64,000 nt of DNA from a bacterium (GTDB taxonomy: Bacteria; Patescibacteriota; Minisyncoccia; Phycocordibacterales; Phycocordibacteraceae), in assembly GCA_023269085.1 (NCBI GenBank), contig JAHFML010000001.1, forward strand, positions 11,966 to 75,965, written 5' to 3'. The translations under genes were made by a program, and so were the position numbers. Under the pieces are notes generated by a model that was not told the DNA's origin, ran no database searches, and saw only the letters and a list, made by a program, of their open reading frames with translations. This document shows positions 18,319-56,120 of the stretch, one piece after another; position 1 is the stretch's first letter, and each line of letters starts with the position of its first letter.

Positions 18319-18795
18319 TTAATTAAGCATCCAGATCGAGAAGTTGAGATACGCCGCGAAGCTCACCCAGAGAATATATGGCACCAGAAGCCAAGCGGCT
18401 GGTTTGGAGATTTTAGCGAAAGCGATGATCGTGGCGAGAATGGCAAGCCAGAGGAAAATAATCTCAACAAGCGCACCGCCGGGAGAATGCAGACCGAAAA
18501 AGATAATTGACCAGAGCGTGTTCAACGCCAGCTGGCCGATAAATATGCCGAGAGCTATTTTCACATCTCTGCGCCCTACCCCCTTTCTCCAGACCAAGAA
18601 CGCCGCGATACCCATGAGCGCAAAGAGTGTCGTCCAAACCGGACCGAATACCCATGCTGGAGGATTGAGCGCCGGCCGAGCGAGCGTGGAATACCAGCCG
18701 GCAATGGATGGAGTTGTAAAGACCGAACCGATGATGCCGGCAAGCTCGGAAACGACAATGGCGATAATGAGTTTAAAGGTGTTGTTTATTTTCAT
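18319..18795 (-). CDS. tspO: TspO/MBR (tryptophan-rich sensory protein) family membrane protein
   Basis: GWYSTLARPALNPPAWVFGPVWTTL signature and 5 TM segments. Confidence 0.8.
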   Translation of the reverse strand: MKINNTFKLIIAIVVSELAGIIGSVFTTPSIAGWYSTLARPALNPPAWVFGPVWTTLFALMGIAAFLVWRKGVGRRDVKIALGIFIGQLALNTLWSIIFFGLHSPGGALVEIIFLWLAILATIIAFAKISKPAAWLLVPYILWVSFAAYLNFSIWMLN

Positions 18796-20222: not shown

Positions 20223-20789
20223 TTAAATATTCATACTTTGGTTGCGGAGATTCGTTTTAACTTCCTTATAGTTAGGAAGCATCTTGCCAACAAGACTCCA
20301 AAACTTCTTTGAATGATTGAATTCGCGCAGATGGCATAACTCATGGACGATCACATAGTCACGAGCGTCCATGGGCAGAAAGAGTATCTTGTAATTGAAA
20401 TTAAGATTCCCTCTCTTTGAGCAACTTCCCCACCGAGTCTTCTGATTTTTAATGTTGATCTGACTGAAGCTGAACTGGTAGATAGTATTAAAGTAATTTA
20501 CTCGTTCTACTGCGAGCGCATATGCTTCGTCCTTATATTTCAAGTAATCAGCCTTGCTATGACGAGCGACCGCCTTCCCGCTGAACTGTTTGAAGAACGC
20601 AATCTTTTTGAAAAGCCAGTCTGTCTTCTCTCGAATAAACTTTTCGACAACCGTCTCCTTGAGATCAAAGGGCGACGTGACCACAATCGTACCGTCACAA
20701 TATACTGCGAGACGCATCCTGCGAGCGCGATGACTTTTCCGAAGTGTATAGGTGATCTTTTTATCCTGAAGAGCTATTTGTTTCTCCAT
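20223..20789 (-). CDS. DUF45/YgjP-like zinc metallopeptidase (M48-like), the kind often linked to type I R-M loci
   Basis: WGSCS...YVIVHELCHLREFNHSKKFW signature. Lies immediately downstream of hsdR. Confidence 0.75.
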   Translation of the reverse strand: MEKQIALQDKKITYTLRKSHRARRMRLAVYCDGTIVVTSPFDLKETVVEKFIREKTDWLFKKIAFFKQFSGKAVARHSKADYLKYKDEAYALAVERVNYFNTIYQFSFSQINIKNQKTRWGSCSKRGNLNFNYKILFLPMDARDYVIVHELCHLREFNHSKKFWSLVGKMLPNYKEVKTNLRNQSMNI

Positions 20790-20791
20790 GA

Positions 20792-23698
20792 TTAGAATTT
20801 CTTCATTACAATATCGACCAAACGATTGAGATATTTGTGGAAGTCACTGACCTGAATACGATCCCGATACTCCTTAAGAACCAGCTCCTGCACGATGCGC
20901 TTCACCTCTTTCAAGAATTCATCGCGCTTGGATGACTCCTGCCATCCCTCGTCGAGAATATTTTCGAGACGATTGGTCATGTCCTTGATGAATTCACGAA
21001 CAATATCTTTATCTCCCCCAACGAACTCCGTCGAAACGACATAGAGACCGTACTCCTTGAGTGAATACCCGAGCTCTTTAGCTTCATCGCCTTTCTTCTT
21101 TATGTCGGCAAGGAGCTCCTGATACCGCTTGATGCGTTCCGAGAGATCAATCTGGTGCTGCTCGAATTCTTTGCGGATTAATCCCAGACGCTCACTGAAC
21201 TTTTTATACGCCGGATTCGTGTCTATGTTGATTGAGATCTCTTGTTTGAGCATCTTCTCGAGATTGAGTGCTTTCTCTTCGTCATCCATCTTGTTGAGCC
21301 GCTCCATGACATAGAGATCATTCACATTGAGCTCGCGGAAGTTCTTGGTGATACCTTCGTAATCAACGCGTTGCTGTATGAGTAGCTTCACCTTCTCCCC
21401 ATACTCCGCGAGAAGTTCAGCATCTGACATCTTCTCGCTGTACTCCTTTTCGAAGGCGAGATAAACGCTCGTAAGCCACTCGAATGTTCGCACAGACTCT
21501 TTCAAGAAAGGATCCGGCGAAAGAATCTCAAACAGAAGTTTGAGCCGTGCATATTTGCCCCGGAAGAACTTCTGCTTGTCGAGATTCTCTGCAAAGATCT
21601 TGAGACATCGACGCAAGTTATCAATAGACGGATCTTCGATATTAATGCCCGTAAAGATATCCATGGTCTCTCTAAGCACCTCGATAAATTCTTCTTTGAG
21701 TTTATCGATATTGAGCATCGCCGAATCAACGATACTCTCGTCAAAATTGAGTGCTTGATAGAGACTCTTGGTAATGCCGTAATAGTCGATGACCTTCCCT
21801 GCCCCCTTGTTTGGATAGACCCGATTGGTGCGCGCAATCGCTTGGAGCAGATTGTGATCCCAAAGCGGCTTGTCGAGATACATCACTTGTTCAACTGGCG
21901 CGTCAAAACCAGTCAGAAGCATGTCGCAGACGAGCAAGAATTTGAGTGAGCTGGTTGGGTTCTTGAATTCGTTGATTATCTTCTCACGCTTCGCCTTTGT
22001 CGTATTGTACTTACGCAAGTCCTCTGAATCCGTATTCGGGTCACCCGGCGAATAAACCACTTCTGACCATTCCTTCGGTACCAGTTGGTCGAATAACTTT
22101 TTATACTTTGCGACTGCCTCGCGGTCATAACAAACAACCTGCGCTTTGAATCCAGACGGCTCTACATACAGACGGTAATGCTCGACAATGTCCCGAGCCA
22201 CCGCCTCCATACGTCGGTCGAGCTTCACGATTGCTTCTTTCTTTCCATACTTCTTTGCCACCACATCACGCTCCTTATCTGAAAGGTCGGTCGTTAGCTC
22301 TTCGAACTGCTTATCGAGCTTCTCGTCATCAATAAAGAATTTAGAAAGCCGCGCTTCGTAGGTCACAGGGAGCGTTGCGCCATCATCGATAGCTTGTTGG
22401 ATGGAATAGTAATCCAAGTATCGCTCTCCTTCTTCTCCGAAGTTGCGGTGCGTATTGAGAGTAACTCGATCGATCGGAGTACCAGTGAAGCCAAAGAAGA
22501 ACGCATTCTTCATCGCGCTTCGCAGATTGATAGCCGACACGCCCTCGTTGTCGCGATGCGCTTCATCCGAGAGCACGATGACATTCTCATCGAGATTCTC
22601 GATATCCTTACCAAGTTCCGAGAACTTCTGGATAGTCGTGATGAAAACTCCACGCTCCGGTGACTGTATTTTCTTCTCCAAATCAGCTCGCGACTCCACC
22701 CGAACCACATTTTTACCGCCGCAATTGACGAAGGTCTCATATATCTGGTCATCAAGATCAATGCGGTCGACGAGAATGAATACCTTCGGATTCTTGAGCT
22801 CTTTGTTGTAGCGGAGCTTCCATGCGGTGAAGAACATGGTGAGCGACTTCCCCGAGCCTTGGGTATGCCAGATGAGCCCGCGCTTTTTATCTCCTTCAAG
22901 CACCCGCTCGACAATCTTGTTGGTAGCCCGCAATTGCTGATATCGCGCGATCTTCTTGATCGTCTGTTCCTTCTCCTTCTCGAAGAGAATAAAGTTCTGA
23001 ATGATATCCAGAAGTCGCTCCTTCTCAAGAAGCGAGACGAGTGTCGCCTCAAGATTCCCTTCTTCAGATTTCTCAAGTTCATCATCTTTCCATTCCAAGA
23101 AGTACTGCACTGGCGCATAAGTTGCTCCATACACTGTCTTCAATCCGTCAGTCGCTACATTGAAACAGTTTGGCCAAAAGAGTTTAAACGCGTTCCGCTC
23201 GTAACGCTTGATCTGTCCGACTGCGTTTGCATAATCCACATTAGTTGCAGCTGTAGGGCTCTTGGCCTCTATATCGACTACTGGCAAGCCGTTCAGAAAT
23301 ATCATTATGTCCGGGCGGATGTTTTCGGAATTACCCTCAAAATAGAACTGATTAGTGACGACGAAGTGATTATTGGCAGGAGTAGTAAAATCTACGATGA
23401 AGTAGTCGCGCATTTTGCCCGTCTGCGGATCCTTGAGATTTACCCCATTGCGCATGACATTCAAGAACGCCTCATTGTTATCGACCTTCTTCACCTCGCG
23501 CACTACCGAAAGTGCCTCGTCATCTTCAATTCCGTTTATCTTCTTCACCGCTTCGAGCAAAAGCGATGTAATGATGTATTCATTCTCAAACTCGCGCAAT
23601 TTCGCAAATTCCGTAGGCACAACATATTCGTATCCCAAACGCTCCCGAAGAAACTTCAGGATATGATTCTCGACCGTGTATTGTTCGTTGAATTTCAT
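20792..23698 (-). CDS. hsdR: Type I restriction enzyme R subunit (HsdR)
   Basis: 968 aa. Walker A HTQGSGKSLTM and DEAH box (LSDEAHR). N-terminal nuclease region. Helicase motifs. Confidence 0.9.
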   Translation of the reverse strand: MKFNEQYTVENHILKFLRERLGYEYVVPTEFAKLREFENEYIITSLLLEAVKKINGIEDDEALSVVREVKKVDNNEAFLNVMRNGVNLKDPQTGKMRDYFIVDFTTPANNHFVVTNQFYFEGNSENIRPDIMIFLNGLPVVDIEAKSPTAATNVDYANAVGQIKRYERNAFKLFWPNCFNVATDGLKTVYGATYAPVQYFLEWKDDELEKSEEGNLEATLVSLLEKERLLDIIQNFILFEKEKEQTIKKIARYQQLRATNKIVERVLEGDKKRGLIWHTQGSGKSLTMFFTAWKLRYNKELKNPKVFILVDRIDLDDQIYETFVNCGGKNVVRVESRADLEKKIQSPERGVFITTIQKFSELGKDIENLDENVIVLSDEAHRDNEGVSAINLRSAMKNAFFFGFTGTPIDRVTLNTHRNFGEEGERYLDYYSIQQAIDDGATLPVTYEARLSKFFIDDEKLDKQFEELTTDLSDKERDVVAKKYGKKEAIVKLDRRMEAVARDIVEHYRLYVEPSGFKAQVVCYDREAVAKYKKLFDQLVPKEWSEVVYSPGDPNTDSEDLRKYNTTKAKREKIINEFKNPTSSLKFLLVCDMLLTGFDAPVEQVMYLDKPLWDHNLLQAIARTNRVYPNKGAGKVIDYYGITKSLYQALNFDESIVDSAMLNIDKLKEEFIEVLRETMDIFTGINIEDPSIDNLRRCLKIFAENLDKQKFFRGKYARLKLLFEILSPDPFLKESVRTFEWLTSVYLAFEKEYSEKMSDAELLAEYGEKVKLLIQQRVDYEGITKNFRELNVNDLYVMERLNKMDDEEKALNLEKMLKQEISINIDTNPAYKKFSERLGLIRKEFEQHQIDLSERIKRYQELLADIKKKGDEAKELGYSLKEYGLYVVSTEFVGGDKDIVREFIKDMTNRLENILDEGWQESSKRDEFLKEVKRIVQELVLKEYRDRIQVSDFHKYLNRLVDIVMKKF

Positions 23699-23704
23699 AT
23701 TCGT

Positions 23705-24595
23705 TTATTTCTTCTGTCCATTTCTTAAGATGACAAAACGTATTAGCGAGCCGGTCATGCTAACTACCATCTCCGAATCGTCTCTGTTAAATTCTTTGCA
23801 TGTACCGTGCTTTATTTCATCCATCCAGTTGCGTAAGTTTTTGAAAAGTTCTTTTTGATGACCATTCAATCCTAGAGCTTTTGAGTCGGTCTTGTCTGAT
23901 ATATGCTTAAAACCTTTTTCTCTTTTGCCAGATACTGATTTTACCAACTCATCGCAAGCCGTGTACATGTCCTCAATAACATCTTTGTAGTGCGCTTGTG
24001 TCTTCGCTGTCAAAAATTCCTTTAGCCCATTTTCAAAATGAGAAAGAACGTGTTCAAATCTTTCGTCCGTCTCTAGTAATCCAAGGGTATTTTTAATATC
24101 CGTCTCAAATTTCTTTGAAGTAGTTGGCAAGATCTGTGGCGCTTTTCGTTTATAGATCTTTATGGTCACCCCTAGCATAGGAAAATCATTGAGATATTTT
24201 TCTATACGTTTCGCAAGTTGATCTAATTCAGCTCGCACAAAATCATGTTCTGCTACAACATTCAGCAATACTTGTAATCGCAACAAATATTCTTCGAAAG
24301 ATCCTGAGAAACGGTCTGATATCTCACCGTCAATCATTCGCTTCAATCCAGATGAATAATCTGTGCCATACCAATCGTCGATATCAAAAAATAACTGGCG
24401 ACACACTTCATCTAATATAGCCGACTGAAGTTCCCAGAGTTTTGTACTGTCTTGATACACACTAGGAGAGATGATCGGCCCCAATGCATCGATGATTTCA
24501 CCCTTTAAATATTTCTTGCACCCGACTCGAACACTCTCAATATTGAGTTTGAGTCCAAAGCGGGAATATAAATCTTGATTTGTATTATTGTTCAT
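23705..24595 (-). CDS. Hypothetical 296-aa protein embedded between hsdS and hsdR
   Basis: Translationally coupled with hsdS (ATGA overlap). Lys/Glu-rich and helical. No motif recognised by eye. Its position suggests a defence or abortive-infection passenger. Confidence 0.5.
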   Translation of the reverse strand: MNNNTNQDLYSRFGLKLNIESVRVGCKKYLKGEIIDALGPIISPSVYQDSTKLWELQSAILDEVCRQLFFDIDDWYGTDYSSGLKRMIDGEISDRFSGSFEEYLLRLQVLLNVVAEHDFVRAELDQLAKRIEKYLNDFPMLGVTIKIYKRKAPQILPTTSKKFETDIKNTLGLLETDERFEHVLSHFENGLKEFLTAKTQAHYKDVIEDMYTACDELVKSVSGKREKGFKHISDKTDSKALGLNGHQKELFKNLRNWMDEIKHGTCKEFNRDDSEMVVSMTGSLIRFVILRNGQKK

Positions 24596-25809
24596 ACTTT
24601 TACTCTTTGCTTTCCACTCAACAAATCCTGCATCAGACCTTTTTTCAGTCCTGTGAGTTTTTCCTTCAACTCCTGATTGATCGTCATTTTATCGTCAACC
24701 GATGAAAGCACTTCGGAGATTTTCTTAATCTCATCAATGTTTGATGGCTTCGGAATTGGAATGGAGAACAGCCTATCCTTGTTGAGTTTTGGTTGAGCCA
24801 TGCCAGTTAGAAAAGGCTCGAGATTGATCATATTCAGATAGTCTTGTATATACTTCTGAAGAAATCGATCTTCAAACCTTTGAAGGTGTGCATGATTATT
24901 TACCCAATATTTTCCAATAGCAGTAAAAGCAATCGGGTAATTCCTATCTTTTAGATTCGCGCCATCTTCTGAAATCAAGAGCAACTCTTCATCAAATATA
25001 TAGTCGCCAACATAATCCACAATTCCTGTTGCCCCATAATAAGGATAAGATCCTGATTCACGCTTTGATTTGGTAATAGGAATTCGCTTGTTATCTAGAT
25101 TAGATGAAATATCATTTAGGTTCACAATTTCCCAATCTCTTGGAATCTCACCGATCTCAGTTTTCTTATATTTTGTATGGCCAATGCCTTTGGTAAAAAG
25201 TTGCTGTGTCAGTCCGTGCTTGAGCTTTTTGGTCATAGCAATAATCTCGTCAGTTTTCTGAATTTCTTCATCGACAGAGGTGAGAATCTCAGCAATCTTC
25301 TTTTGTTCCTGCTTGGACTCTGGGAAGAGTATGCTTACTCCCAGAAAATCGTGCTTGGATAGATTAAAACGTGTACTACCTTTTGCATGCGCAGCAATTT
25401 CTTTCCTGAAGACAGACCCTCTGAAAAGGTAGCCTCCGAAAGTTGGATCGAGCAGGTCCTTCTCGGGACGGAATATGAAACAGAAACTGTTCAAATACAA
25501 TTCCACTGGGTCCGAGACCACAGCGGAAGACATTCCGACCTCCTCCGGAGTTTCAGAGCTGGTCGTAAAAATATAGTCCCCATACCGTATCTGATTTTGT
25601 CTCTCTCCATCTTTTATCTCCACGAGGTTAGTAAAATCTTTGTCAAGATGAGGATTACGAAAGACATTCATGTATGGAATGAATGGTCTTCCACTACCAA
25701 AATCTTTCTTAGATTTCCCAGTAAGACCTCCTAAGGTATTACCTAGATCCTCAAGCTTTACTCGTTTCCACTGTGGAGGAACGTTGCGTTGTGAAAGTTT
25801 ACTACTCAT
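24592..25809 (-). CDS. hsdS: Type I R-M specificity subunit (HsdS)
   Basis: Two target-recognition domains separated by conserved helical spacers. Start taken at MSSKLSQRN. Confidence 0.8.
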   Translation of the reverse strand: MSSKLSQRNVPPQWKRVKLEDLGNTLGGLTGKSKKDFGSGRPFIPYMNVFRNPHLDKDFTNLVEIKDGERQNQIRYGDYIFTTSSETPEEVGMSSAVVSDPVELYLNSFCFIFRPEKDLLDPTFGGYLFRGSVFRKEIAAHAKGSTRFNLSKHDFLGVSILFPESKQEQKKIAEILTSVDEEIQKTDEIIAMTKKLKHGLTQQLFTKGIGHTKYKKTEIGEIPRDWEIVNLNDISSNLDNKRIPITKSKRESGSYPYYGATGIVDYVGDYIFDEELLLISEDGANLKDRNYPIAFTAIGKYWVNNHAHLQRFEDRFLQKYIQDYLNMINLEPFLTGMAQPKLNKDRLFSIPIPKPSNIDEIKKISEVLSSVDDKMTINQELKEKLTGLKKGLMQDLLSGKQRVKV

Positions 25810-27616
25810 CTTTAAATTCAATCTCGGTGAAGAGCGCCTTGATGTTCGCTTTTGTGCCATCACTCAACGTAACTTCCCCGGCCCTTGCCTTCTGAAGAAA
25901 CTTGCGTGCAAGCAAAACCTTATCGGGCTTCGGGTTCAGATTCTTGATGTATTCAGAATTTGCGGAAGTATAGACCAGAGACTCGTCTTCCATAACATAA
26001 TTCTTAAAATCCTCTGGGCTGAATATGTCCGCAATGGTTGATCCGTCTTTTTTGAGAACCGTCTTGATGGCATCAGGCAGAACTTTCCATGCCTTCAAGT
26101 TTTTGACCCCATCTTTCTTCCCTTGATCATTATCAAAAAGATAATGTACATCTGCGCCCCACCCCTCCAATATTGTTCCCACGATGCCCATGTTTGGAGC
26201 ACCACCACCATTTATAAAGTTGGTTTTAAGATCTTTCTTTTCAAGCTCCTTGAAAGCACGAAGAAAGAATACATCCTCTGGACCTTCTACGACCACGTTG
26301 TCCTTCTGATCGAGATTGGTGATCGAGTCATTAATGCCGAGGCCGATTGCAGTAAGGATAGGAGTGAGTGTTTCCTTATCAGCAGTCGGGTGTGCATGTA
26401 TCTTCCCCAAGATCTTAGTGCCCGTCCCATCTGAAGGCTTCTCGACGAGCCTGATGTTCTCGAGGTTGTCTTCGGTAATAAGGTAAGGGGAATGTGTGGA
26501 GAAGACGACTGGATTTTCATTCGTGTGTGCCAACAAAACCTGAAGAAGGTCTTTCTGTGCTTTTGCATGCAGGTAAAGTCCCGGTTCATCAATTAGTATG
26601 ACGTTGGGTTTATCTTCCTGAAGCCTTGCAACAATCTTCACGTAAAATGACAAGTACCACTGCTGACCCTTACTTCGTTGTGACGGATAGTAAAGTTTGT
26701 TATTTTCAACGATCCAGAAGTTTATGTCGGTGCCGTCTTTCTTCACCTGTAACTTTATCTTGTCTTGAGTCCAATATTTATCGAACTTCTCCGAGAAGTC
26801 GACGTTTACGGAAGTCTCGTGATTTACTTGCTCTTGTTGATTGGTCGAGGCCATCTTTGCGGTCGAGAAATTACTGACATGCTCAAGATCTTGAGCCCAT
26901 TCATTCGATGTAAGTGAGGCGATTGGGATTGATTTCGGGAACTCATCATCAAAAGATGAGAAGAGAACAAAATATGGCAACTGTGATTTTACAAACTCTG
27001 CAACAAAATCTGTCACGAGCTTCTCCTGAGCGTAGTAATCGTCAGACATTTTTTCTATCATGATCACTTCGGCGACTACATCTGTAAGGCCCGCATTCTG
27101 GGACTTAAAAGTTACAACTTCTGTCTTAAAATCACTAAGTTTCTTTTTTTCGAGGTTTGGAAACTTAACACCGGCTCCTGAGGATTTGATCAGAGCATCT
27201 ATCTTCTTGATAGACTCTTGGATCTGTTTCTTGGAGATTTCATAAATATTTGGGAGATTAATTTGCTTACGTGACTCTGGATCAACGATATACGTCGTGA
27301 CTCCGAATTTCTTGGTTAATGTAATTACTGCATCCTTTGTAACGGTTTTATCAGTACCGATAGCCTTAAGAATTTCATTCGTCTCAGAGTCCGGAAGAAC
27401 AAAAGTGATGGATATCTCTGGAACACCTTCGCCATCTATTGGTTTGGCTTCCTGTCTGATAGTTTTATCTTGATGGAAATCCTCCAATGCTTCCAAAACA
27501 GATGTCTTTCCGGATTCATTCTTACCGGCAAGAATGGTCAGTTTCTCGCTGAAATAACAGTCGCCTGAATCAACAATAGACTTATAGTGCTTGATTCTAA
27601 ATTTGGTGAGTTTCAT
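25802..27616 (-). CDS. OLD-family ATP-dependent endonuclease-like protein (N-terminal ABC-type ATPase, C-terminal TOPRIM)
   Basis: Walker A LAGKNESGKTSVLEAL. Walker B/D-loop ILIDEPGLYLH. TOPRIM-like VVVEGPEDVFFL...LFDNDQG. 604 aa, located between hsdM and hsdS. Confidence 0.65.
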   Translation of the reverse strand: MKLTKFRIKHYKSIVDSGDCYFSEKLTILAGKNESGKTSVLEALEDFHQDKTIRQEAKPIDGEGVPEISITFVLPDSETNEILKAIGTDKTVTKDAVITLTKKFGVTTYIVDPESRKQINLPNIYEISKKQIQESIKKIDALIKSSGAGVKFPNLEKKKLSDFKTEVVTFKSQNAGLTDVVAEVIMIEKMSDDYYAQEKLVTDFVAEFVKSQLPYFVLFSSFDDEFPKSIPIASLTSNEWAQDLEHVSNFSTAKMASTNQQEQVNHETSVNVDFSEKFDKYWTQDKIKLQVKKDGTDINFWIVENNKLYYPSQRSKGQQWYLSFYVKIVARLQEDKPNVILIDEPGLYLHAKAQKDLLQVLLAHTNENPVVFSTHSPYLITEDNLENIRLVEKPSDGTGTKILGKIHAHPTADKETLTPILTAIGLGINDSITNLDQKDNVVVEGPEDVFFLRAFKELEKKDLKTNFINGGGAPNMGIVGTILEGWGADVHYLFDNDQGKKDGVKNLKAWKVLPDAIKTVLKKDGSTIADIFSPEDFKNYVMEDESLVYTSANSEYIKNLNPKPDKVLLARKFLQKARAGEVTLSDGTKANIKALFTEIEFKDE

Positions 27617-27623
27617 AGACGCA

Positions 27624-29447
27624 TCAATAATTCAATTCGTTAAGAAAGCCCTCGACCTTTTTATCTATTTCCGCTCGTTCTTTCTCCAGCGCCACGAGCT
27701 CCTTACGCACCGCAGACACATCGATCTCTTCCTCCTTGTCGCCATTCTCGATATAGCGACGAACATTGAGATTGAATTCGTTCTCTTCGATTTCTTTGAG
27801 ATCTATTACGCGAGCATAGTTCTCGACATCAGCGTAGTTGTCGTAGGCGCGGATAATCTTCTGAATGTCTTGCACGCGAAGCGAGTTCTGATTCTTCCCT
27901 TCGGAGAAGTCCTTTTCGGCATCAATGACAAGCACCTTGTCCTTGCGATTCTCTGGTTTGTTCTTGTTGAAAATGAGAATGGCCGCTGGGATGCTGGTGC
28001 CGTAGAAGAGTTTGGACGGGAGTGCGATTACCGCTTCAAGAAGGTCGTTCTTGAGCAGTTGCTCGCGGATACGCCCCTCTGCGCCACCACGGAAGAGGAC
28101 ACCATGCGGGAGCACAATGCCCGCGCGACCATTTGAATTCATCGACTTGATGATGTGGAGGACAAAAGCATAGTCGGCGTTCTTGTCCGGTGGCATATCA
28201 TAGCCATCGACGCGACCGTATTTGTCGAATTTGAAGAGTTCGTATTCCCAATCCTTGATTGAGTAGGGTGGGTTCGCAACCACAATATCAAAAGTCTTGA
28301 GCGAACCGTTTGGATTGAGGAATTGCGGATTCACGAGTGTATCGCCGCGCTGTATGTCAGCACTGTCGAGTCCGTGCAGGAACATGTTGATCTTGGCAAT
28401 GGCGTAGGTCCCGATGTTGAGCTCCTGACCATAGAGATAAAGAGTGCGGGCAACTGACTCACCCTCTTTCTCTTTCAAGTGATGAAAGGCCTCGAGAAGG
28501 AAACCGCCCGATCCGACCGTCGGGTCATAGATATGGTCCTTCTTGTGCGGTTTAAGAATCTGAATGATCACACCTTCTACTTCGCGTGGGGTATAAAATT
28601 CTCCGCCTTTCTTGCCTGCGTCAGCCGCGAATTGCTTAATGAGATATTCATAGGCATCGCCGAGCAGATCGGAATTGATATAGGTATCACCGAAGTTGTA
28701 CTGCGAGAAATGATTGAGAAGACGCTGAAGCGTCTCATTCGGGAAGCGATCCTTATTAGCAAAATCGAGATCGTCAAAAATCTTATCAAGCTTCGGGCTA
28801 TTGGCATTCGCAAGCTTCTCGAAGACCTCGTTGAGCTTCACGCCGATGTTTTCTGCGCGTTCCTCGATAACTGACCAACGACACTCCTTGGGGACCTGGA
28901 AGCGATGATTATAATCGGCGCGGGCGATCGTTTCATCCTTGAATTCATCCATTACCCGCGCGTACTCCTCGTCCCACACGTCGCTGATGCGCTTATAGAA
29001 AAGAAGTCCGAAGATGTATTTCTTGTAATCCGAGCTGTCGATCTTACCACGAAGGATGTCGGCGCTCTTCCAGAGAAATTGTTCGAGCTGTGGCAGAGTA
29101 AGTTTGCTCCCCATCTTGTCGACGATCGTCTGAATGTCCTGTGGGCGATACTTACGATCGCCGCGCTTACCAGCACGAAGAGGCACCAAGATCCCATCTT
29201 TCTCCCAATTGCGAAGAGTATCGGGGTGGATATTAAAAATTTCGGCTACCTGGCCGATAGAGAGCAAATCTGGCATGTCTTTAAGCTTTGCTTGAATATC
29301 TTTTCGCATATCTATACGCCTCATCCTATCGCCGCACAAATATAATGTCAAGCGTTCATAGGTCTTCATAGGTCTGCATCCTAACTTACGGCTTAAAATA
29401 AGGATAATCTGGTTACCAACAGCTCGGATTTGTGCTCTGGACTTCAA
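27624..29447 (-). CDS. hsdM: Type I R-M DNA methyltransferase subunit (HsdM) with an in-frame N-terminal MerR/excisionase-like HTH extension
   Basis: N6-adenine MTase motifs (NPPY, FYTP) and an HsdM N-terminal domain (LEQFLWKSADILRG). Upstream of it, in the same frame, about 70 aa with LSIGQVAEIFNIHPDTLRNWEKDGIL. Candidate starts are 29447, 29324 and 29309. Confidence 0.85.
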   Translation of the reverse strand: MKSRAQIRAVGNQIILILSRKLGCRPMKTYERLTLYLCGDRMRRIDMRKDIQAKLKDMPDLLSIGQVAEIFNIHPDTLRNWEKDGILVPLRAGKRGDRKYRPQDIQTIVDKMGSKLTLPQLEQFLWKSADILRGKIDSSDYKKYIFGLLFYKRISDVWDEEYARVMDEFKDETIARADYNHRFQVPKECRWSVIEERAENIGVKLNEVFEKLANANSPKLDKIFDDLDFANKDRFPNETLQRLLNHFSQYNFGDTYINSDLLGDAYEYLIKQFAADAGKKGGEFYTPREVEGVIIQILKPHKKDHIYDPTVGSGGFLLEAFHHLKEKEGESVARTLYLYGQELNIGTYAIAKINMFLHGLDSADIQRGDTLVNPQFLNPNGSLKTFDIVVANPPYSIKDWEYELFKFDKYGRVDGYDMPPDKNADYAFVLHIIKSMNSNGRAGIVLPHGVLFRGGAEGRIREQLLKNDLLEAVIALPSKLFYGTSIPAAILIFNKNKPENRKDKVLVIDAEKDFSEGKNQNSLRVQDIQKIIRAYDNYADVENYARVIDLKEIEENEFNLNVRRYIENGDKEEEIDVSAVRKELVALEKERAEIDKKVEGFLNELNY

Positions 29448-29502
29448 AGACGGTCTGCGTCATTCATTGGGTTATATGGAAACAGCCGCAATTCGCACCC
29501 CA

Positions 29503-30804
29503 ATGACATTCGAGCAAGCCGTTACAAGCCCCGTTCGATACTGCCTCTATGCCCGCAAGAGCACCGAACAGGACGAGCTTCAAGCCGACTCGCAGATCAA
29601 GGAGATGAGCGAGGCGGCCATCAGAGACGGATTGGAGATAGCTGAAGTCAGAAAAGAATCGCACTCGGCCAAGGAGTCTGGCCAGCGACCGGTCTTCAAG
29701 AAGATGCTCGAAGATATACGCAGAGGTATGTTCAACGGCATCATCGCGTGGGATCCATCCCGTATAAGCCGCAACGCTGGAGACCTCGGATCAGTCGTCG
29801 ATCTAATGGACCAGAAGCTTATCGTCGATATCCGAACGCATGGGCAACGATTTACCAACTCGCCGAATGAGAAATTCCTCTTGATGATTCTCTGTAGCCA
29901 GGCGAAGCTCGAGAATGATCATAAGGGAGAGAACGTGAAGCGCGGTCTCCGAGCGAAGTGCGACATGGGATATCGACCCGGCGTCTCGCCGATCGGTTAC
30001 ATCCATGACAAATATGCTGACAAAGGACAAAAGCGCGTTCTCGTCGATCCTAAGCGTGCGCCGATTGTCAAGCAGATGTTCGAGAAGGTCGCGTACGAAG
30101 ATTGGAGCGGTCGCGACTTGCATGAATGGTTTGTGCAAACCGGCTTCATGACCCGATCTGGCAAACGTGTGGCGCTCTCGGGCATCTACAGGATGCTCAA
30201 GGATACTTTCTATTACGGGGAGTTCGAATATCCTGAAGGGAGCGGAAAAATCTACCGAAGTGCCGTCGAGTCAATTATAACGAAGGAGCTATTCCTCAAG
30301 GCCCAAGCAAATCTGCAGGCTCCCCCACGCAGACATCCCGGCACCAACGAGTTCGGATTCACCCGCCTCTTCATCTGTGGCGCGTGCGGCTCCGGTATCA
30401 CTGCCGAAGAAAAGTTCAAGAACCTCAAGAATGGTGCTCGCAATCGGTATGTTTATTATCACTGCACTCGGTATAACGATAAACGCTGTAAAGAGAAACC
30501 GATTCGTGAAGAAAACCTTGTTGAGCAATTGCTGCGGATTATCGACAAGGTCGATAACAATGAGATTGGTGCCCGTGCGCAGATCGGTAAAGAGGTCGCG
30601 CGATATCGTCAGATTGCTTATGGCGTCCTCGGTTACGAACCAGAGCTTGTTCGAGTACCGCCTGAAGCCGATGTGAGACAGTACACGAAGCACGTACTCA
30701 AGTACGGCACCAAGGAAGAGCGGCGGGAGATAATTGGGTGTCTCGATGGAAGAATTGAACTCAAGAGCAAGAATCTTGGTATACGAATCTTTGCAGAATG
30801 CTAA
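29503..30804 (+). CDS. Large serine recombinase (resolvase/invertase catalytic domain, recombinase domain and zinc ribbon)
   Basis: YARKSTEQDE catalytic Ser region. A C-x2-C...C-x-C zinc ribbon (CGACGSG...YYHCTRYNDKRC). Divergent from hsdM. The longest ORF starts at 29467. Confidence 0.8.
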   Translation: MTFEQAVTSPVRYCLYARKSTEQDELQADSQIKEMSEAAIRDGLEIAEVRKESHSAKESGQRPVFKKMLEDIRRGMFNGIIAWDPSRISRNAGDLGSVVDLMDQKLIVDIRTHGQRFTNSPNEKFLLMILCSQAKLENDHKGENVKRGLRAKCDMGYRPGVSPIGYIHDKYADKGQKRVLVDPKRAPIVKQMFEKVAYEDWSGRDLHEWFVQTGFMTRSGKRVALSGIYRMLKDTFYYGEFEYPEGSGKIYRSAVESIITKELFLKAQANLQAPPRRHPGTNEFGFTRLFICGACGSGITAEEKFKNLKNGARNRYVYYHCTRYNDKRCKEKPIREENLVEQLLRIIDKVDNNEIGARAQIGKEVARYRQIAYGVLGYEPELVRVPPEADVRQYTKHVLKYGTKEERREIIGCLDGRIELKSKNLGIRIFAEC

Positions 30805-31395: not shown

Positions 31396-31452
31396 GTTGC
31401 ACAGGATTCATCTGCTCCGCGGGTAGGATTCGAACCTACGACCAACTCGTTA

Positions 31453-32032
31453 CACGTTGCCTCTTGTTACCAAGAGAGTGGACTATATCATCACCCGTAT
31501 CTGTTCTCACAGATCGAGGGTGCGAGGCGCTTCGTCCTTCGATTATTCTCAGGACTACTCCCTTGCGGGATAGTCTCTACACCTTCCTCTCGACATGCGC
31601 CGAGAGACTTGGCTCGGGATTGCCCACAGCATTTCCTCTGTTAGGGGTTCCCCGAATTCACCTCGTGTTCGACCTGAATCTCTTCAGGAAGCTGCGTAAT
31701 GCCTGCGTGCACTTCACGGTGACAATTCGCACAAACAAGAGCGCATTTATCGATTTCTTCTTTGATTTTTTCCCATGATCTCGTGAGCCCTTTTGTCGAG
31801 AGACCGAAGTCTTTCTTCGTAGGATCTTTATGGTGAAAATCAAGCGCTCCTGAATAACGATCGTAACCGCAAATAATGCACTTCCCGCCTTTGTACTCAC
31901 GCGCCATTTCTCGAAGTTTTTTACGACGTTCAGTAACAGCTTTGCGCAAATACTCTGCACGGTCGGCATAAGTCCTTTTTTCTTTTGGCATACTCAGATA
32001 AGTATACCATTGGGTTTCGGACTTGAACCACA
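31453..32032 (-). other. Intervening sequence inside the tRNA anticodon loop, a candidate ORF-containing group I intron (boundaries +/-2 nt)
   Basis: The 5' exon ends in U and the insert ends in G. The insert contains two GNRA-tetraloop hairpins (cucuug-GUAA-caagag at 31461-31476 and uccc-GCAA-ggga at 31561-31572, both read on the minus strand). The same-strand HNH ORF lies within it. Classic P1/P7 elements were not confidently identified by eye. Confidence 0.45.
31641..31991 (-). CDS. Small HNH endonuclease (116 aa) encoded within the tRNA intervening sequence
   Basis: CIICG...LDFHHKDP...CANCH: a HNH/His-Me finger with two CxxC pairs. Same orientation as the tRNA. Confidence 0.7.
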   Translation of the reverse strand: MPKEKRTYADRAEYLRKAVTERRKKLREMAREYKGGKCIICGYDRYSGALDFHHKDPTKKDFGLSTKGLTRSWEKIKEEIDKCALVCANCHREVHAGITQLPEEIQVEHEVNSGNP

Positions 32033-32150
32033 GCGAGCCGCTCTACCACTGAGCTACCGCGGAATATTTTTAGCACCAGAACACTCACCCACCTCGCTAT
32101 GAGGCGGTGTTCATAGTCTACCTGAAAAATCGCGAGCCGCAACAGCGACA

Positions 32151-46978: not shown

Positions 46979-48676
46979 TTATTTCCTGTCGAGGAGCCGC
47001 ACGAGGCGGATGACTTCAAATGAATATTTGCCGCGGAGAGCATGGAAGACGGGCGCGAGCTTGTCGTCCTTCTCTTCTGCGAGCGCGAGCTGTATCTCTT
47101 CGACAATCTCGGGAGCCGGCAAGAGATGACGGAAGTCTTCGGGCGCGAGGCGTTCGAGCTCAGCGAGCTCTTCGAGATGATGCACAATAGTCGAGACGAC
47201 GAAGCCACGCGCCTTGGCGACGGCCGCGAGCCCGGTCGCCTCGCGGGCGGCCTGCAGAGTCTCGGCGAGGCGGCCGGGGAGTGCGTCTGAACGCGCGCCG
47301 CTCTGCAGCGCGCGTTTCCCCTTCCCTTTTTCCCGCATCTTCTTCTCTTCACCCGGTGTGAGCCACGCGCCGCCCATCGCGGTGACGAATTTCTTCTGCA
47401 TTCCCTCGACCTCCTTCTCCGGCATCTCGGTGAACGCCTCGCGCGCCGCATCGCTCGCGGCTCTGAAATCCCCGTCCTTCTTCAAAATCTCTGGGTGGAC
47501 CTCAAGCGCGCGCTCGTTCAAGCCGGTGAGGTAGAGGCCGCTCAAGCGCCGCACACGCGAGAGTGCGACATACCCTTGCCCATATTCAAAGGCGCGAGAG
47601 AGATCGATGATCGCCGCGTCCATGCTCATCCCCTGGCTCTTGTGCACCGTCATCGCATAGGCGAGGCGGAGCGGGATCTGCGCGACGCTCGCCTTCACCT
47701 TCCCCTGCTCCTCGACCTGCCACTCCATCGGCTCGGTGTGCACCCGCACACCCTCCTTCGTCTTCACGACTGGCGTGCCGTCGTCACCCCAACCCGTCAC
47801 GACACCGAGCGTGCCATTCACGAACCTCCCTTGCGGCGAGTTCTTGGTGAACATCACCGCGGCGCCTTCTTTGAGCTCGAGAATCTCGGGCGAGAGACAG
47901 CCGCGCTTCAGCCCTTCGACCAAGCTATCCTTGCCCTTTGAGCTCATATAAAACTTCTTCACGACGCCCGTGATCGCGGCGAGCGCGGCGGTGTTTATTC
48001 TATCGACATCGACATTATGCGAGAAGAGCTGGGGCGTGCCCGCTGGCGCGTCGATCCCCGCGCGCCGCGCGTCGAGGTGTCCGCGATGCTCTTCGATGAC
48101 TTCGCCGCGCCGGATAGCCGAGAGCACGCTGAGGAAGTCGGCGTCATCCTGCCGATACTGCTCGGTCAGGTAGCAGGTGATAAGATTCAAGTCGCGCCAC
48201 ACGCTCGAGGTATAGCAGAAGATCGATTCTTTATTCCGCGATATGGGCGGCAGCTGGAAGAAGTCTCCGACGAGGATCACGGTGAGCCCGCCAAAGGGCA
48301 GGTCGACCCGCCGCACCTCGCGACACACTGCGTCCGCCATCGCGAGGGTCGCGGCCGAGAGCATCGAAACCTCTTCGATAATAAGCACCTTCGCCTTCCC
48401 GATGCGCTTCGCGACATGCTCTTTGGTCGCGATGCGGTCGATGTCGGCCGGAGAGAGCGACTCGCTGATGCCGATGCCGCTCCACGAGTGCAGGGTCATC
48501 CCGCCCACGTGCGTCGCCGCGATGCCGGTCGCCGCCGTGACCGCGGACTCGATACCCGAGGCGCGGAGCCAGTCGACAAAGGCGTTGACTGTGTGCGTCT
48601 TACCGCTCCCCGGCTCGCCCGTGAGGAAGACGTTCGCACCGGTCTTCAATATCTTGAGCGCTTCGCCTTGAGTCAT
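46979..48676 (-). CDS. PIF1/RecD-like 5'-3' DNA helicase with a C-terminal helicase-associated HTH region
   Basis: Walker A GEPGSGKTH, a Pif1-family motif set, and a C-terminal 2B/SH3-like region. Confidence 0.75.
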   Translation of the reverse strand: MTQGEALKILKTGANVFLTGEPGSGKTHTVNAFVDWLRASGIESAVTAATGIAATHVGGMTLHSWSGIGISESLSPADIDRIATKEHVAKRIGKAKVLIIEEVSMLSAATLAMADAVCREVRRVDLPFGGLTVILVGDFFQLPPISRNKESIFCYTSSVWRDLNLITCYLTEQYRQDDADFLSVLSAIRRGEVIEEHRGHLDARRAGIDAPAGTPQLFSHNVDVDRINTAALAAITGVVKKFYMSSKGKDSLVEGLKRGCLSPEILELKEGAAVMFTKNSPQGRFVNGTLGVVTGWGDDGTPVVKTKEGVRVHTEPMEWQVEEQGKVKASVAQIPLRLAYAMTVHKSQGMSMDAAIIDLSRAFEYGQGYVALSRVRRLSGLYLTGLNERALEVHPEILKKDGDFRAASDAAREAFTEMPEKEVEGMQKKFVTAMGGAWLTPGEEKKMREKGKGKRALQSGARSDALPGRLAETLQAAREATGLAAVAKARGFVVSTIVHHLEELAELERLAPEDFRHLLPAPEIVEEIQLALAEEKDDKLAPVFHALRGKYSFEVIRLVRLLDRK

Positions 48677-52436: not shown

Positions 52437-53168
52437 TTGTTTGTTCACGACATGCTGGTTTTTATCGACGAAACGGGAGATCATGATTTGGTAAAGATCG
52501 ACCCGCAATATCCGCTCTTTGGTCTCGGCGCGCTTTTGATAGATGAAAAAGAATACGCCAGACTCGACGCGAAAATTCGAGCGCTGAAAGAAGAATATTT
52601 CGAGAGCGCCGACTTCATACTCCATTCATCCGAACTTAAGCGCCCTACAGACAAGCGGAGTGATCCACGCAACGCGGTGATGCTCGACGCGACAATCAGA
52701 CGACGATTTTATGAAGCGTTCGATGCGCAAATTATTTCCGCCTTCAATTTCAAGCTTGTCGCCTGCTTCATCCACAAGCCGACAATGGTTGGCACCTACA
52801 AATTCCCCGCCGATCCATATTATTTCTCATTTGAGAATCTGCTCAATCGTATCTTGCGTCATGGCGGAGAGAAAAATCTAATCCGTGCGGAGAAGAGAGG
52901 CGACCGGCTCGACACGGAGCTCATCGCAGAATATGAGCGGCTCTTGAAGGTCGGCCTGCGTTTCTATCCTGCAGACACACTCGCAAAGCGCACGACACTG
53001 GAGCTTGTCGCGAAAAAGGATTGTGTGAATGGTTTGCAGATCATAGACCTCATACTCGCCTCTCTCGCGCGGGACTTTCTCGGGAAGACTGCGAAAATGG
53101 TAGGGAACGATCCGTCCCCCACCTTGCTCAAAAAGAAATACGCCTGCCCGTCGACCGTCTTCCCCTAG
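52437..53168 (+). CDS. DUF3800-family protein
   Basis: N-terminal FIDETGD (DES-like) and QIID (QxxD) motifs. 4-nt gap from the protease gene. Confidence 0.55.
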   Translation: MFVHDMLVFIDETGDHDLVKIDPQYPLFGLGALLIDEKEYARLDAKIRALKEEYFESADFILHSSELKRPTDKRSDPRNAVMLDATIRRRFYEAFDAQIISAFNFKLVACFIHKPTMVGTYKFPADPYYFSFENLLNRILRHGGEKNLIRAEKRGDRLDTELIAEYERLLKVGLRFYPADTLAKRTTLELVAKKDCVNGLQIIDLILASLARDFLGKTAKMVGNDPSPTLLKKKYACPSTVFP

Positions 53169-53399
53169 TTCTATCCCTTGTATGAAAAGGGGCAAGGGAG
53201 CCCCCCGCATACGCAGTGAGCTCCCTCTGCCTTATTCCCAATATAGCACATCTTCTGCGGTCAAGCGAATGTTGTGGAAACCACCGCCCGTCCTCGCATC
53301 TCCAATTTCAACTTGCGTGCCTACTGTGCAGGAGTAGAATGAGCGCATGAGCACCCTACACGCGTTCGCTTTATATATTTTTGAGCAAGATAAAAAATT

Positions 53400-53777
53400 A
53401 TGAGACAGGAATTTGTGATAGTTTGTGAGTCGGCCATTGTCGCAAAAGATACCGGGAATCTTTACATCCTCGGTATTTTCGAAAATGTTTCCGTACCGGG
53501 CGTTCCAGTTCTGCAACCAAAATTAGTTGTAGTTACTCGCTTTAGTGAAGCAACAGGAGAACATAAACATGAGATAGTTATACGTCACGACTCTGGCATA
53601 GAAACAGCCCGTTTGCAGGGAAAAATAAATTTTGGCACAAACAATAAAGCCCAATATATCGGGACTTTTATTGGTCTTACCTTCCCTAAGATAGGGATGT
53701 ACTATATCGAAATCTATGCTGATGGCATACTACAGCCGATGAAAGGAGAGTTTAATGTCAATATCGTCCATCAATAA
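53400..53777 (+). CDS. Hypothetical protein (125 aa)
   Basis: ORF in an AT-rich stretch. Confidence 0.3.
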   Translation: MRQEFVIVCESAIVAKDTGNLYILGIFENVSVPGVPVLQPKLVVVTRFSEATGEHKHEIVIRHDSGIETARLQGKINFGTNNKAQYIGTFIGLTFPKIGMYYIEIYADGILQPMKGEFNVNIVHQ

Positions 53778-54084
53778 AATGCCTGTAACAAATACCAGTC
53801 AAAATGAAGACACTGTAGAGCCGCAGTCAAAATTAGGGTCAGAAACTGGAACAAGCGGTACAGAAGGGGACAGTAAAGACCTAACACGAGACCTCGCTGA
53901 AGTGTTTGCCAAGATTCCACTACCGAGACTGTTCCTATTATTAATGTTTCTTTCCTATATGGTAGTTGCTTTTAGTAAGGGCCAACAAGGTATTGGGTAT
54001 CGAGACTTTTTTCTCTTGATTGGTTTTACACTAATTGCTTCAATATTTCATTTTTTCCTTAAGCGGTGGCTCGGGAGCAGATAA
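53755..54084 (+). CDS. Hypothetical small membrane protein
   Basis: ORF with a C-terminal TM pair. Confidence 0.25.
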   Translation: MSISSINKMPVTNTSQNEDTVEPQSKLGSETGTSGTEGDSKDLTRDLAEVFAKIPLPRLFLLLMFLSYMVVAFSKGQQGIGYRDFFLLIGFTLIASIFHFFLKRWLGSR

Positions 54085-54183
54085 TATCTTGTTGTTATCT
54101 GATCAATCTCCCGCATAACCCGCCCCGTCTCGGCGAGAGCGACGATGATTTGCTGATAATACTCGAGGTCAGCAACAACTTGC

Positions 54184-54594
54184 TTATGAATGGCGGATTC
54201 CGAAATGCTGTAAGAACTCAAGAGTCGTTGTCGAATAGCCACTTGGCACTATGGAAACCGTAAAACCAGACATCTCTAACGCATTCGCCACAGATACGGT
54301 AGCTGTTTGATTTTCTATCAACAAAGAGTCCATTAGGCGGTAGCGAAAGAAATGTCCGTCTTCACCCTGATTCACGTATAGAGGATCAACGGTAAACGAT
54401 GATAGCGGCTTGAAAATATCCTGAAGGATCATCTGTCCGGTGTTTGACTGTTGTATAGCTCGCGCTTCCACATACACTTGCCCGCCTGACATAAATGCCT
54501 CCGCCAAAGTTATTGAGGAAGAAGAATCAGAAACGGAAAACGTCCCGCTTCCAAAGGAACCTTCTGCACCGAGAATTACAACAGACGTTGTCAT
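54184..54594 (-). CDS. Hypothetical protein (136 aa)
   Basis: ORF. Overlaps a 64-aa minus-strand ORF (54048-54242) whose 3' end is partially duplicated at 54638-54692. Confidence 0.3.
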   Translation of the reverse strand: MTTSVVILGAEGSFGSGTFSVSDSSSSITLAEAFMSGGQVYVEARAIQQSNTGQMILQDIFKPLSSFTVDPLYVNQGEDGHFFRYRLMDSLLIENQTATVSVANALEMSGFTVSIVPSGYSTTTLEFLQHFGIRHS

Positions 54595-54699
54595 ATGAAC
54601 AGTATACCATAACGAGATTCTACTGCACGATTTTATTTATTTCCCGCATCACCCGCCCCGTCTCGGCGAGGGCGATGATTATTTTGTCGAATATTTTAC

Positions 54700-54927
54700 T
54701 TATCGTGGCGTAAGCCCAATCTCATATTCACCACCAGCACTATCCCAAGCACTTGAAATCTGATAAATACCAATAATGTGTTCAGTATTTATTTCATATT
54801 GGTAAGTCTTTTTGAAGAATTTCTTAAATGCGTCCACTTGATTTTCTTCATTTGAAATAACTATGACATCTGCGTCATTGCTATTTTCCATTTCATTGAA
54901 ATATTGAGCCAGATAAAGTTCGTGCAT
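54700..54927 (-). CDS. Hypothetical small protein (75 aa)
   Basis: ORF downstream of the Mrr-like gene. Confidence 0.25.
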   Translation of the reverse strand: MHELYLAQYFNEMENSNDADVIVISNEENQVDAFKKFFKKTYQYEINTEHIIGIYQISSAWDSAGGEYEIGLTPR

Positions 54928-54936
54928 ATTAATTCA

Positions 54937-55953: not shown

Positions 55954-56120
55954 AAAGAAACTTGCCTTCTGCTTTCAGAGAAGAGACGCGAGAGCGAACC
56001 CACGATCTTGAGCATCTCTTGATAGTAACCAACGCGTTCTGTGTCTTGATTGTTCAGAAACATGATTGAATCATACCAGAAATTCCTTTAAATCGCTTTA
56101 TGAAAAAGGAAGGACTGGTT

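Follow-up and report, generated by a model that had tools for sequence, protein, structure and literature searches.

A type I restriction-modification island of a patescibacterium with a swap slot that holds an OLD-family nuclease gene and a fixed accessory gene for a predicted HEPN-fold protein

In the EcoprrI locus, which encodes a type Ic restriction-modification (R-M) system, the genes are arranged in the order prrA-prrB-prrC-prrD. PrrC, an RNase of the HEPN superfamily, is kept latent by the R-M complex until Stp, an anti-restriction peptide of T4, frees it. HEPN clades linked to R-M number at least 16, and a PrrC-like release has been proposed for them (Anantharaman et al., PMC3710099). 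Genes embedded in BREX, DISARM, and type I R-M loci have been compiled as candidate systems denoted PDC (Payne et al. 2024, 10.1101/2024.01.29.577857), and TgvAB of the Vibrio cholerae VPI-2 type I R-M cluster and Hma/BREX-embedded modules give complementary protection. Thus, the embedding of defense genes in R-M loci is known, as are defenses of the OLD type with ABC-ATPase and TOPRIM domains in general, HEPN proteins tied to R-M have long been predicted, and the statement in an earlier note on this DNA that such insertions are established is documented by PrrC, TgvAB, and the survey of Payne et al. 2024. Here we describe a type I R-M operon (positions 20223-29447, minus strand) in a stretch of 64,000 nucleotides (nt), referred to below as the window, of contig JAHFML010000001.1 from a bacterium of the family Phycocordibacteraceae (Patescibacteriota). 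Besides hsdM, hsdS, and hsdR, this operon includes genes for an OLD-family nuclease, for a protein of 296 amino acids (aa) that we denote X296, and for a metallopeptidase. Three features are new. A hot-swap slot and a fixed accessory gene are separable within one operon lineage. A class-1-type OLD gene lies inside type I operons at two loci. Furthermore, X296 represents an unannotated, rare family that is strongly bound to R-M systems and for which structure modeling predicts a death-like domain joined to a HEPN domain with a noncanonical [K/R]-H motif, an architecture that was not found in the literature searched.

The operon comprises six co-directional open reading frames (ORFs), all of which are present in the ORF list at these coordinates:

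27624..29369, minus strand: hsdM, type I methyltransferase (N6_Mtase, HsdM_N, MerR_1, TIGR00497)
25802..27616, minus strand: OLD-family nuclease, single-gene, class-1-like, the cargo of the hsdM-hsdS slot (ABC ATPase and TOPRIM)
24592..25809, minus strand: hsdS, specificity subunit (Methylase_S; many PADLOC Specificity_I models)
23705..24595, minus strand: X296, R-M-linked protein of 296 aa (family context, predicted structure)
20792..23698, minus strand: hsdR, restriction/translocase subunit (HSDR_N, SWI2_SNF2, T1R_D3-like, T1RH-like_C, TIGR00348)
20223..20789, minus strand: YgjP-like (DUF45) zinc metallopeptidase (PF01863, 2e-44), 2 nt after hsdR

Separate HsdM, HsdS, and HsdR genes at one locus define a type I R-M system, and all three are present. 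The earlier note had given the minus-strand order as hsdM, OLD, hsdS, the 296-aa gene, hsdR, and DUF45, and profile searches confirmed all six ORFs together with their names. It had also described the genes as overlapping by 4-8 nt, which holds for two of the five junctions, the other three being gaps of 2-7 nt. With gene starts as called on an identical public contig (L001), hsdM and OLD are separated by 7 nt, the hsdS start overlaps the OLD stop by 8 nt, hsdS and X296 overlap by 4 nt (ATGA), and gaps of 6 and 2 nt precede hsdR and the YgjP-like gene, respectively. The block is AT-rich, as the note had stated, with a GC content of 0.37-0.50 compared to about 0.60 in the flanks and a minimum over hsdS and the X296 gene.

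The two operons closest to that of the window, L047 and L048, which we refer to as sister operons, distinguish the conserved from the variable parts of this locus. Relative to the window, the identities of the encoded proteins in L047 and L048 are as follows:

MerR-HsdM: 81-82%
X296: 75-78%
HsdR: 72-80%
YgjP: 59-64%
HsdS: 32-36%, as expected for target-recognition/specificity domains
Gene in the hsdM-hsdS slot: unrelated to that of the window

The slot is occupied by the OLD gene in the window, by a gene for a 197-aa HEPN_AbiV protein in L047, and by a gene for a 256-aa protein of unknown type in L048; among the remoter loci with X296, it contains NYN, DUF2321, AbiJ_NTD4, and other unknown genes. 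The conserved chassis thus consists of MerR-HsdM, a cargo slot, HsdS, X296, HsdR, and the YgjP peptidase. Because the sister operons keep this chassis and change the slot gene, the hsdM-hsdS slot is a swap site for stand-alone defense genes in which OLD is swappable cargo, and X296 and YgjP are fixed parts of the chassis. The comparison therefore separates a hot-swap slot (OLD, AbiV-HEPN, unknown) from a fixed accessory at the hsdS-hsdR junction.

The X296 family is small and lacks annotation. Clustering of 5.8 billion proteins at 90% identity places it in 55 clusters, none of them named and none with a Pfam domain, and a profile search of 1.84 billion representatives yielded 186 matches with E<=1e-3, 33 of these with E<=1e-30. 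All reference genomes with X296 are metagenome-assembled genomes of Patescibacteria (Candidate Phyla Radiation), namely, Yanofskybacteria, Saccharibacteria, Parcubacteria, Peribacteria, and Falkowbacteria; one named protein match comes from Kuenenbacteria. A tblastn search with X296 against the PLSDB plasmids gave no match. We surveyed about 35 distinct X296 loci, 28 of which have readable neighbors and are considered informative:

18 loci: type I operon, hsdM-[variable genes]-hsdS-X296-hsdR
4 loci: type III operon, X296 between or just after mod and res, no OLD gene
1 locus: type ISP/IIG-like enzyme, X296 after the enzyme gene and next to another HEPN gene
5 loci: no R-M system (L010/L039, L011/L035, L019, L031, L034)

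Thus, 23 of the 28 informative loci have X296 inside or beside an R-M system. In most cases, it immediately follows hsdS or mod and precedes hsdR or res, with overlaps of 4-20 nt. Within the type I operons, hsdS and X296 share 4 nt at their stop and start, and the stop of X296 often reaches into the start of hsdR. The 296-aa gene had been taken in the earlier note for a second passenger next to OLD, and this placement and linkage, along with its 75-78% identity in the nearest operons, contradict that view. The description of the operon as a landing pad accordingly stands in part: this is a type I R-M system with extra defense-type genes inside, among which OLD is cargo, and the 296-aa gene is fixed.

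Several further observations concern the surroundings of X296. A gene for a RadC-like JAB-domain protein is located directly upstream of hsdM in five type I operons with X296 (L002, L003, L006/L023, L024, L043) and directly upstream of X296 in the Schlafen-type helicase locus L010/L039, and appears to be a recurrent companion of X296 islands. Two type III operons (L004, 10884-12391; L026, 4129-6072) contain two more unannotated genes between X296 and res, encoding proteins of about 150-390 aa and 250-360 aa, which may be added conserved accessories of the type III version. A homologue with 32% identity is encoded on a Peribacteria-labeled contig (L012/L046) that has almost no long ORFs under genetic code 11, which suggests an alternative genetic code or poor sequence; the context of this gene is unreadable.

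Structure prediction divides X296 into three parts:

Residues 1-137 (nt 24185-24595): predicted N-terminal domain, a death-like six-helix bundle
Residues 143-157: predicted beta-hairpin
Residues 161-295 (nt 23711-24115): predicted C-terminal domain of the HEPN fold, with K262-H263, E275, and R286

In the predicted model, the C-terminal domain is a four-helix up-down HEPN bundle. H263 shows no variation among 51 close and 52 distant relatives, and the residue before it is K or R throughout; conservation of E275 and R286 reaches 94% or more, and D/N259 is nearly invariant. The resulting His-centered pattern, [D/N]259-x-x-[K/R]262-H263 with E275 and R286, suggests an active site. Searches of X296 against Pfam, NCBIfam, and PHROGs returned nothing usable, and the only Pfam or NCBIfam matches among 51 distant relatives were to N-terminal domains in two proteins. 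A P-loop or ATPase match was not detected in X296 either, and its N-terminal domain is all-helical.

In profile comparison, hhalign aligned the C-terminal domain of X296 with that of the AbiJ_NTD4 protein of locus L005 at 76% probability (E 2.3e-5; residues 158-296 vs 138-276) with the common motif [R/K]-H-G, a weak link obtained with a single-sequence template. One of the matches to the X296 profile, P0185, is itself an AbiJ_NTD4 protein. X296 also resembles the AbiJ family (NTD1 to NTD5) in its overall organization, a protein of about 280-300 aa with a variable N-terminal domain followed by a conserved C-terminal HEPN-fold domain, but its N-terminal domain has no Pfam match to AbiJ-NTD1 through NTD5, nor did the Abi_C model give one. 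Some AbiJ proteins have been reported in R-M operons (PMC3710099).

X296 additionally showed weak similarity to two PDC-S32 models (22.2 and 20.4 bits; E 2.9e-5 and 8.6e-5). When X296 and 51 distant relatives were searched together, the three PDC-S32 models matched 18, 5, and 3 of these 52 sequences, with a best E-value of 1.7e-93. Like the X296 family, PDC-S32 is found embedded in R-M-type systems, and distant relatives of X296 match it strongly; X296 itself, at 20-22 bits, would be a remote sister family that PADLOC probably does not call, and PDC-S32 is itself a prediction. The name PDC-S32 was not found in the available text of the Payne preprint.

Taken together, these features point to X296 as a predicted HEPN-fold C-terminal domain combined with a death-like helical N-terminal domain, and, by analogy with PrrC, we propose that it could be a latent RNase that serves as a backup coupled to the R-M system, a reading to which we assign a probability of about 0.5. 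X296 would be co-produced with HsdR and held inactive by the restriction complex. Should a phage block or overwhelm restriction, X296 would be released and would dimerize or oligomerize, perhaps via the N-terminal domain, to form a composite HEPN site; cleavage of host or phage RNA would follow, and the infection would be aborted. The OLD protein would provide an independent, DNA-directed layer of defense. OLD-type ABC modules such as PARIS respond to anti-restriction proteins; the OLD protein described here is not known to do so.

The analogy with PrrC goes beyond the proposed latent-RNase logic. In EcoprrI, as in the window and most of the 18 type I loci, the gene lies between hsdS and hsdR, and both proteins have a C-terminal domain of the HEPN superfamily, predicted in the case of X296. 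By contrast, PrrC has an ABC-ATPase N-terminal domain, which X296 lacks, having a death-like helical bundle instead; the PADLOC models for PrrC give no similarity to X296; and X296, without the Rx4-6H motif, is found in type III operons as well.

Several points weigh against X296 being a PrrC-like backup. The HEPN motif Rx4-6H is absent: the nearest candidate, R/K255, is 7 residues upstream of H263 and is not kept in distant relatives. Given this absence, catalysis by X296 is not assured, even though HEPN clades that keep H and lack R exist (PMC3710099). Sequence searches of X296 against Pfam HEPN models and PDB structures gave no match, and the RNase activity, toxicity, and HsdR interaction of X296 are predicted from a structure model and from gene context. 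Five informative loci lack a nearby R-M system, which shows that X296 can exist without one. Finally, since promoter- and terminator-like consensus sites in the block are no more frequent than in shuffled sequence, a single transcript for the six genes is plausible at most.

The five loci without R-M and the similarity to AbiJ proteins bring up a different possibility, that X296 is an autonomous AbiJ-like abortive-infection toxin whose N-terminal domain senses phage and which resides in R-M operons for co-transfer or co-expression only. The parallel to AbiJ, a protein of about 280 aa with a variable N-terminal and a conserved HEPN C-terminal domain, fits this explanation, as does the homology of the C-terminal domain to that of AbiJ_NTD4 proteins; the N-terminal domains of AbiJ have been proposed to be sensors (PMC3710099), and embedded systems generally work independently (Payne et al.). 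Against it stands the strikingly fixed position of X296, which keeps its place, its stop and start codons overlapping those of its neighbors, in type I and type III systems alike and at 40-78% sequence divergence, while genes come and go freely in the hsdM-hsdS slot of these operons. We regard this explanation as possible, on the unlikely side.

The missing Rx4-6H motif is also compatible with a noncatalytic role, in which X296 would be an accessory of the restriction subunit involved in assembly, regulation, or alleviation, for example, in the loading or turnover of HsdR, perhaps together with YgjP. Noncatalytic HEPN families are known (PMC3710099), death-fold domains are adaptors rather than enzymes, and the gene order suggests stoichiometric co-production with HsdR. 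On the other hand, the invariant basic residue-His pair and the conserved E275 and R286, retained despite divergence down to about 20% identity, form the pattern of an active site, relatives of X296 occur without R-M, and YgjP, which follows hsdR also in L015, L047, and L048, is missing from most X296 loci. An accessory role of this kind is therefore unlikely in our assessment.

The N-terminal domain is a candidate for mediating the oligomerization of the proposed latent RNase. Its predicted bundle most closely resembles PYD, CARD, DD, and DED structures, including caspase CARDs, the FADD DD, NLRP PYDs, and the DEDs of MC159 and caspase-8. Foldseek comparison of this domain with the PDB yielded nothing at E<=1, leaving the death-like fold unconfirmed; no sequence-profile link to death domains was found in Pfam; and no second copy of the domain, which the effector-associated-domain idea would lead one to expect, was detected on HsdR, HsdM, or OLD (hhalign probabilities below 1%). 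In view of these results, we use the term death-like in the sense of a predicted fold only. The bacterial death-like domains bDLD1-3 (Kaur et al. 2021) may be a precedent, and the predicted fusion of the bundle to a conflict-system effector domain in X296 agrees with the effector-associated-domain idea. The bDLDs were described in MoxR-vWA and STAND systems of multicellular bacteria and come in pairs, the same domain being present on two proteins, whereas X296 is mostly patescibacterial and has no detectable partner copy on HsdR, HsdM, or OLD. That the N-terminal domain is a true member of the death fold, driving homotypic oligomerization of the HEPN RNase once restriction is disabled, seems to us rather improbable. 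If true, X296 would be a minimal suicide switch, with death domain and effector in one protein, wired to R-M mainly in Patescibacteria with tiny genomes.

The cargo of the slot in the window, the 604-aa OLD protein, was recognized as an ATPase/TOPRIM protein of the OLD family in the earlier note, and profile matches and intact motifs bear this out. It matches AAA_15 (2e-20) and AAA_21 (2e-16) in Pfam and the PADLOC model Old (8e-22), as well as the GajA and AriA models; the Old model covers residues 333-506, and GajA aligns over residues 286-538. The Pfam domain OLD-like_TOPRIM (PF20469) scored 18.9 bits, under its 23.2-bit cutoff, and several homologues have a precomputed PF20469 match. The ATPase motifs comprise Walker A G31KNESGKT, a signature-like SQRSKGQQ, Walker B VILIDE344, and an H-loop STH375S, those of the TOPRIM domain are E444GxxD448 and D495xD497, and all are invariant across 21 homologues (47-83% identity). 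Of the solved structures, the class 1 OLD from Thermus scotoductus (6p74, 2.8e-12) is the best match to the profile of these homologues; it aligns with profile positions 344-487, from Walker B into the TOPRIM domain.

OLD proteins are classified by context, with a UvrD-like helicase in class 2, a retron reverse transcriptase and noncoding RNA in class 3, and a separate AriB in class 4 (PMC10568477). As the neighbors of the OLD gene are hsdM and hsdS only, and no UvrD-like helicase, retron, or AriB is nearby, the protein falls in class 1 of this context scheme; its nuclease activity and role in phage defense are predicted. Other class 1 OLDs (P2 Old, Thermus scotoductus OLD, and Vibrio cholerae OLD) likewise lack a partner helicase, retron, or AriB, and the catalytic motifs are intact here; the identity of the window protein to the characterized members is low. 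According to a 2023 review, class 1 OLDs are single genes located away from other defense genes (PMC10568477), whereas the OLD genes of the window and of L015 lie inside type I operons. These two loci qualify the published generalization.

The OLD family is large (at least 1,411 clusters), and the five members examined vary in context:

Window: embedded between hsdM and hsdS
P0270 (L015), 57% identity: embedded, hsdM-OLD-DUF4917-hsdS-...-hsdR-YgjP
P0205, 82% identity: beside a convergent type I system
P0253, 72% identity: solo
P0315, 46% identity: solo

Hence OLD is a module that stands by itself and is found in R-M operons from time to time; with its homologues solo, beside, or inside R-M and other genes in the slots of L047 and L048, the suggestion in the earlier note that OLD is variable cargo is borne out. 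The type I operon of L015 (8001-16687) has the order hsdM-OLD-DUF4917-hsdS-53 aa-201 aa-hsdR-YgjP, and the product of its 201-aa gene has an RKFRNRIF stretch that recalls the RN motifs of Abi/HEPN proteins. As this gene occupies the hsdS-hsdR slot, it was considered as a relative of X296, which hhalign ruled out.

The same loci bear on the reading implicit in the earlier note, in which OLD and the 296-aa protein form one undescribed two-gene defense system inserted into an R-M operon. The two genes do share an operon, both in the window and in its identical counterpart L001. However, hsdS lies between them, no other X296 locus among the approximately 35 carries OLD, none of the four other OLD-homologue loci carries X296, and the sister operons, with X296 at 75-78% identity, carry other genes instead of OLD. 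We therefore rejected a two-gene system of OLD and X296 on co-occurrence, which is confined to the window locus, and consider it highly improbable.

In its general design, the operon resembles TgvAB and the Hma/BREX-embedded modules, which are independent defense modules nested in a multigene operon of the R-M type. The cargo differs, being a GmrSD-like type IV restriction system in the case of TgvAB and OLD and HEPN here, and the present sister operons additionally separate a swappable slot from a fixed accessory.

Among the R-M components, HsdM matches N6_Mtase (3e-109), HsdM_N (3e-27), and TIGR00497 (285 bits vs the 243-bit cutoff), HsdS matches Methylase_S (7e-34), and HsdR matches TIGR00348 (561 bits vs the 285-bit cutoff). 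The likely start of hsdS is the ATG at 25809 (405 aa) within an ORF that spans 24592-25863. At its N-terminus, HsdM contains a helix-turn-helix domain of the MerR/HTH_17 type (MerR_1, 3e-10; ORF residues 61-108, in the region 29100-29369). This domain is kept in the sister operons L047 and L048 and absent from the HsdM proteins of remoter X296 loci. It may serve the operon as an internal transcriptional regulator. The likely start of hsdM is the ATG at 29369 (581 aa), as called in the identical contig L001; the open frame reaches a TTG at 29447, and further in-frame ATG codons are present at 29324 and 29309. Because the strongest promoter-like site, TTGACA-17-TAGGAT (29351-29323), falls within the annotated 5' end of hsdM, the real start may be the ATG at 29324 or 29309. 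For the YgjP-like peptidase, we found no statement in the literature that links DUF45/COG1451 to hsdR, and this association rests on the loci described here.

The block forms a type I R-M island of horizontal origin, with a low GC content, a serine recombinase gene beside it, and a tRNA-Thr gene that abuts it:

29467..30804, plus strand: large serine recombinase, divergent from hsdM (Resolvase, Recombinase, Zn_ribbon_recom)
31414..32063, minus strand: tRNA-Thr(UGU), split by a 577-nt group I intron (RF00028; ARAGORN allowing long introns)

The serine recombinase gene, also present in L001, is probably the mobility gene of the island; another serine recombinase is encoded beside the type III locus L009. 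In the window, the recombinase gene is followed by a 177-aa ORF and then by the tRNA-Thr gene, whose anticodon loop is interrupted by the intron (RF00028 match at 31460-31749, 67.5 bits vs a gathering score of 50, E 6e-15); this interruption explains why the default scan found no tRNA in the window. The intron contains an ORF for a 116-aa HNH-type protein (31641-31991) with the motifs DFHHKDP and CANCHREVH. To our knowledge, no group I intron in tRNA-Thr is among the described bacterial cases, which involve tRNA-Leu, fMet, Ile, and Arg. The 3' end of the tRNA-Thr gene points toward the low-GC block, and GC returns to about 0.6 beyond 32200; given this orientation, the gene is probably the right-hand boundary or integration site of the island. 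No duplicate of the tRNA fragment was found elsewhere in the window, and no direct or inverted repeats were found at the ends of the island, which fits a serine recombinase. The flanks consist of ordinary chromosomal genes, including those for ProS, a P-type ATPase, and glycosyltransferases.

Two other parts of the window deserve mention. A TspO/MBR gene is located a few kilobases downstream of the R-M operon (18319-18795, minus strand) and another one downstream of the X296-bearing type III system on the Kuenenbacteria contig (L004, 16197-16697); this recurrence may be a coincidence or a common island remnant. A second AT-rich patch (53000-56000, GC 0.39-0.45) contains ORFs without an NCBIfam match, such as 54937-55953, and an ORF for a RecD2/TraA-like helicase is located near it (46979-48676, minus strand); the patch may be a further mobile or defense island.

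The split between slot and accessory provides a testable model of R-M operons that carry second-line defenses, and the linkage of X296 to type I, type III, and ISP/IIG-like R-M systems makes it a candidate for experimental study. If X296 is a PrrC-like backup RNase, it would extend this paradigm to a protein without an ATPase sensor and to candidate-phyla bacteria, in which immunity is poorly known.

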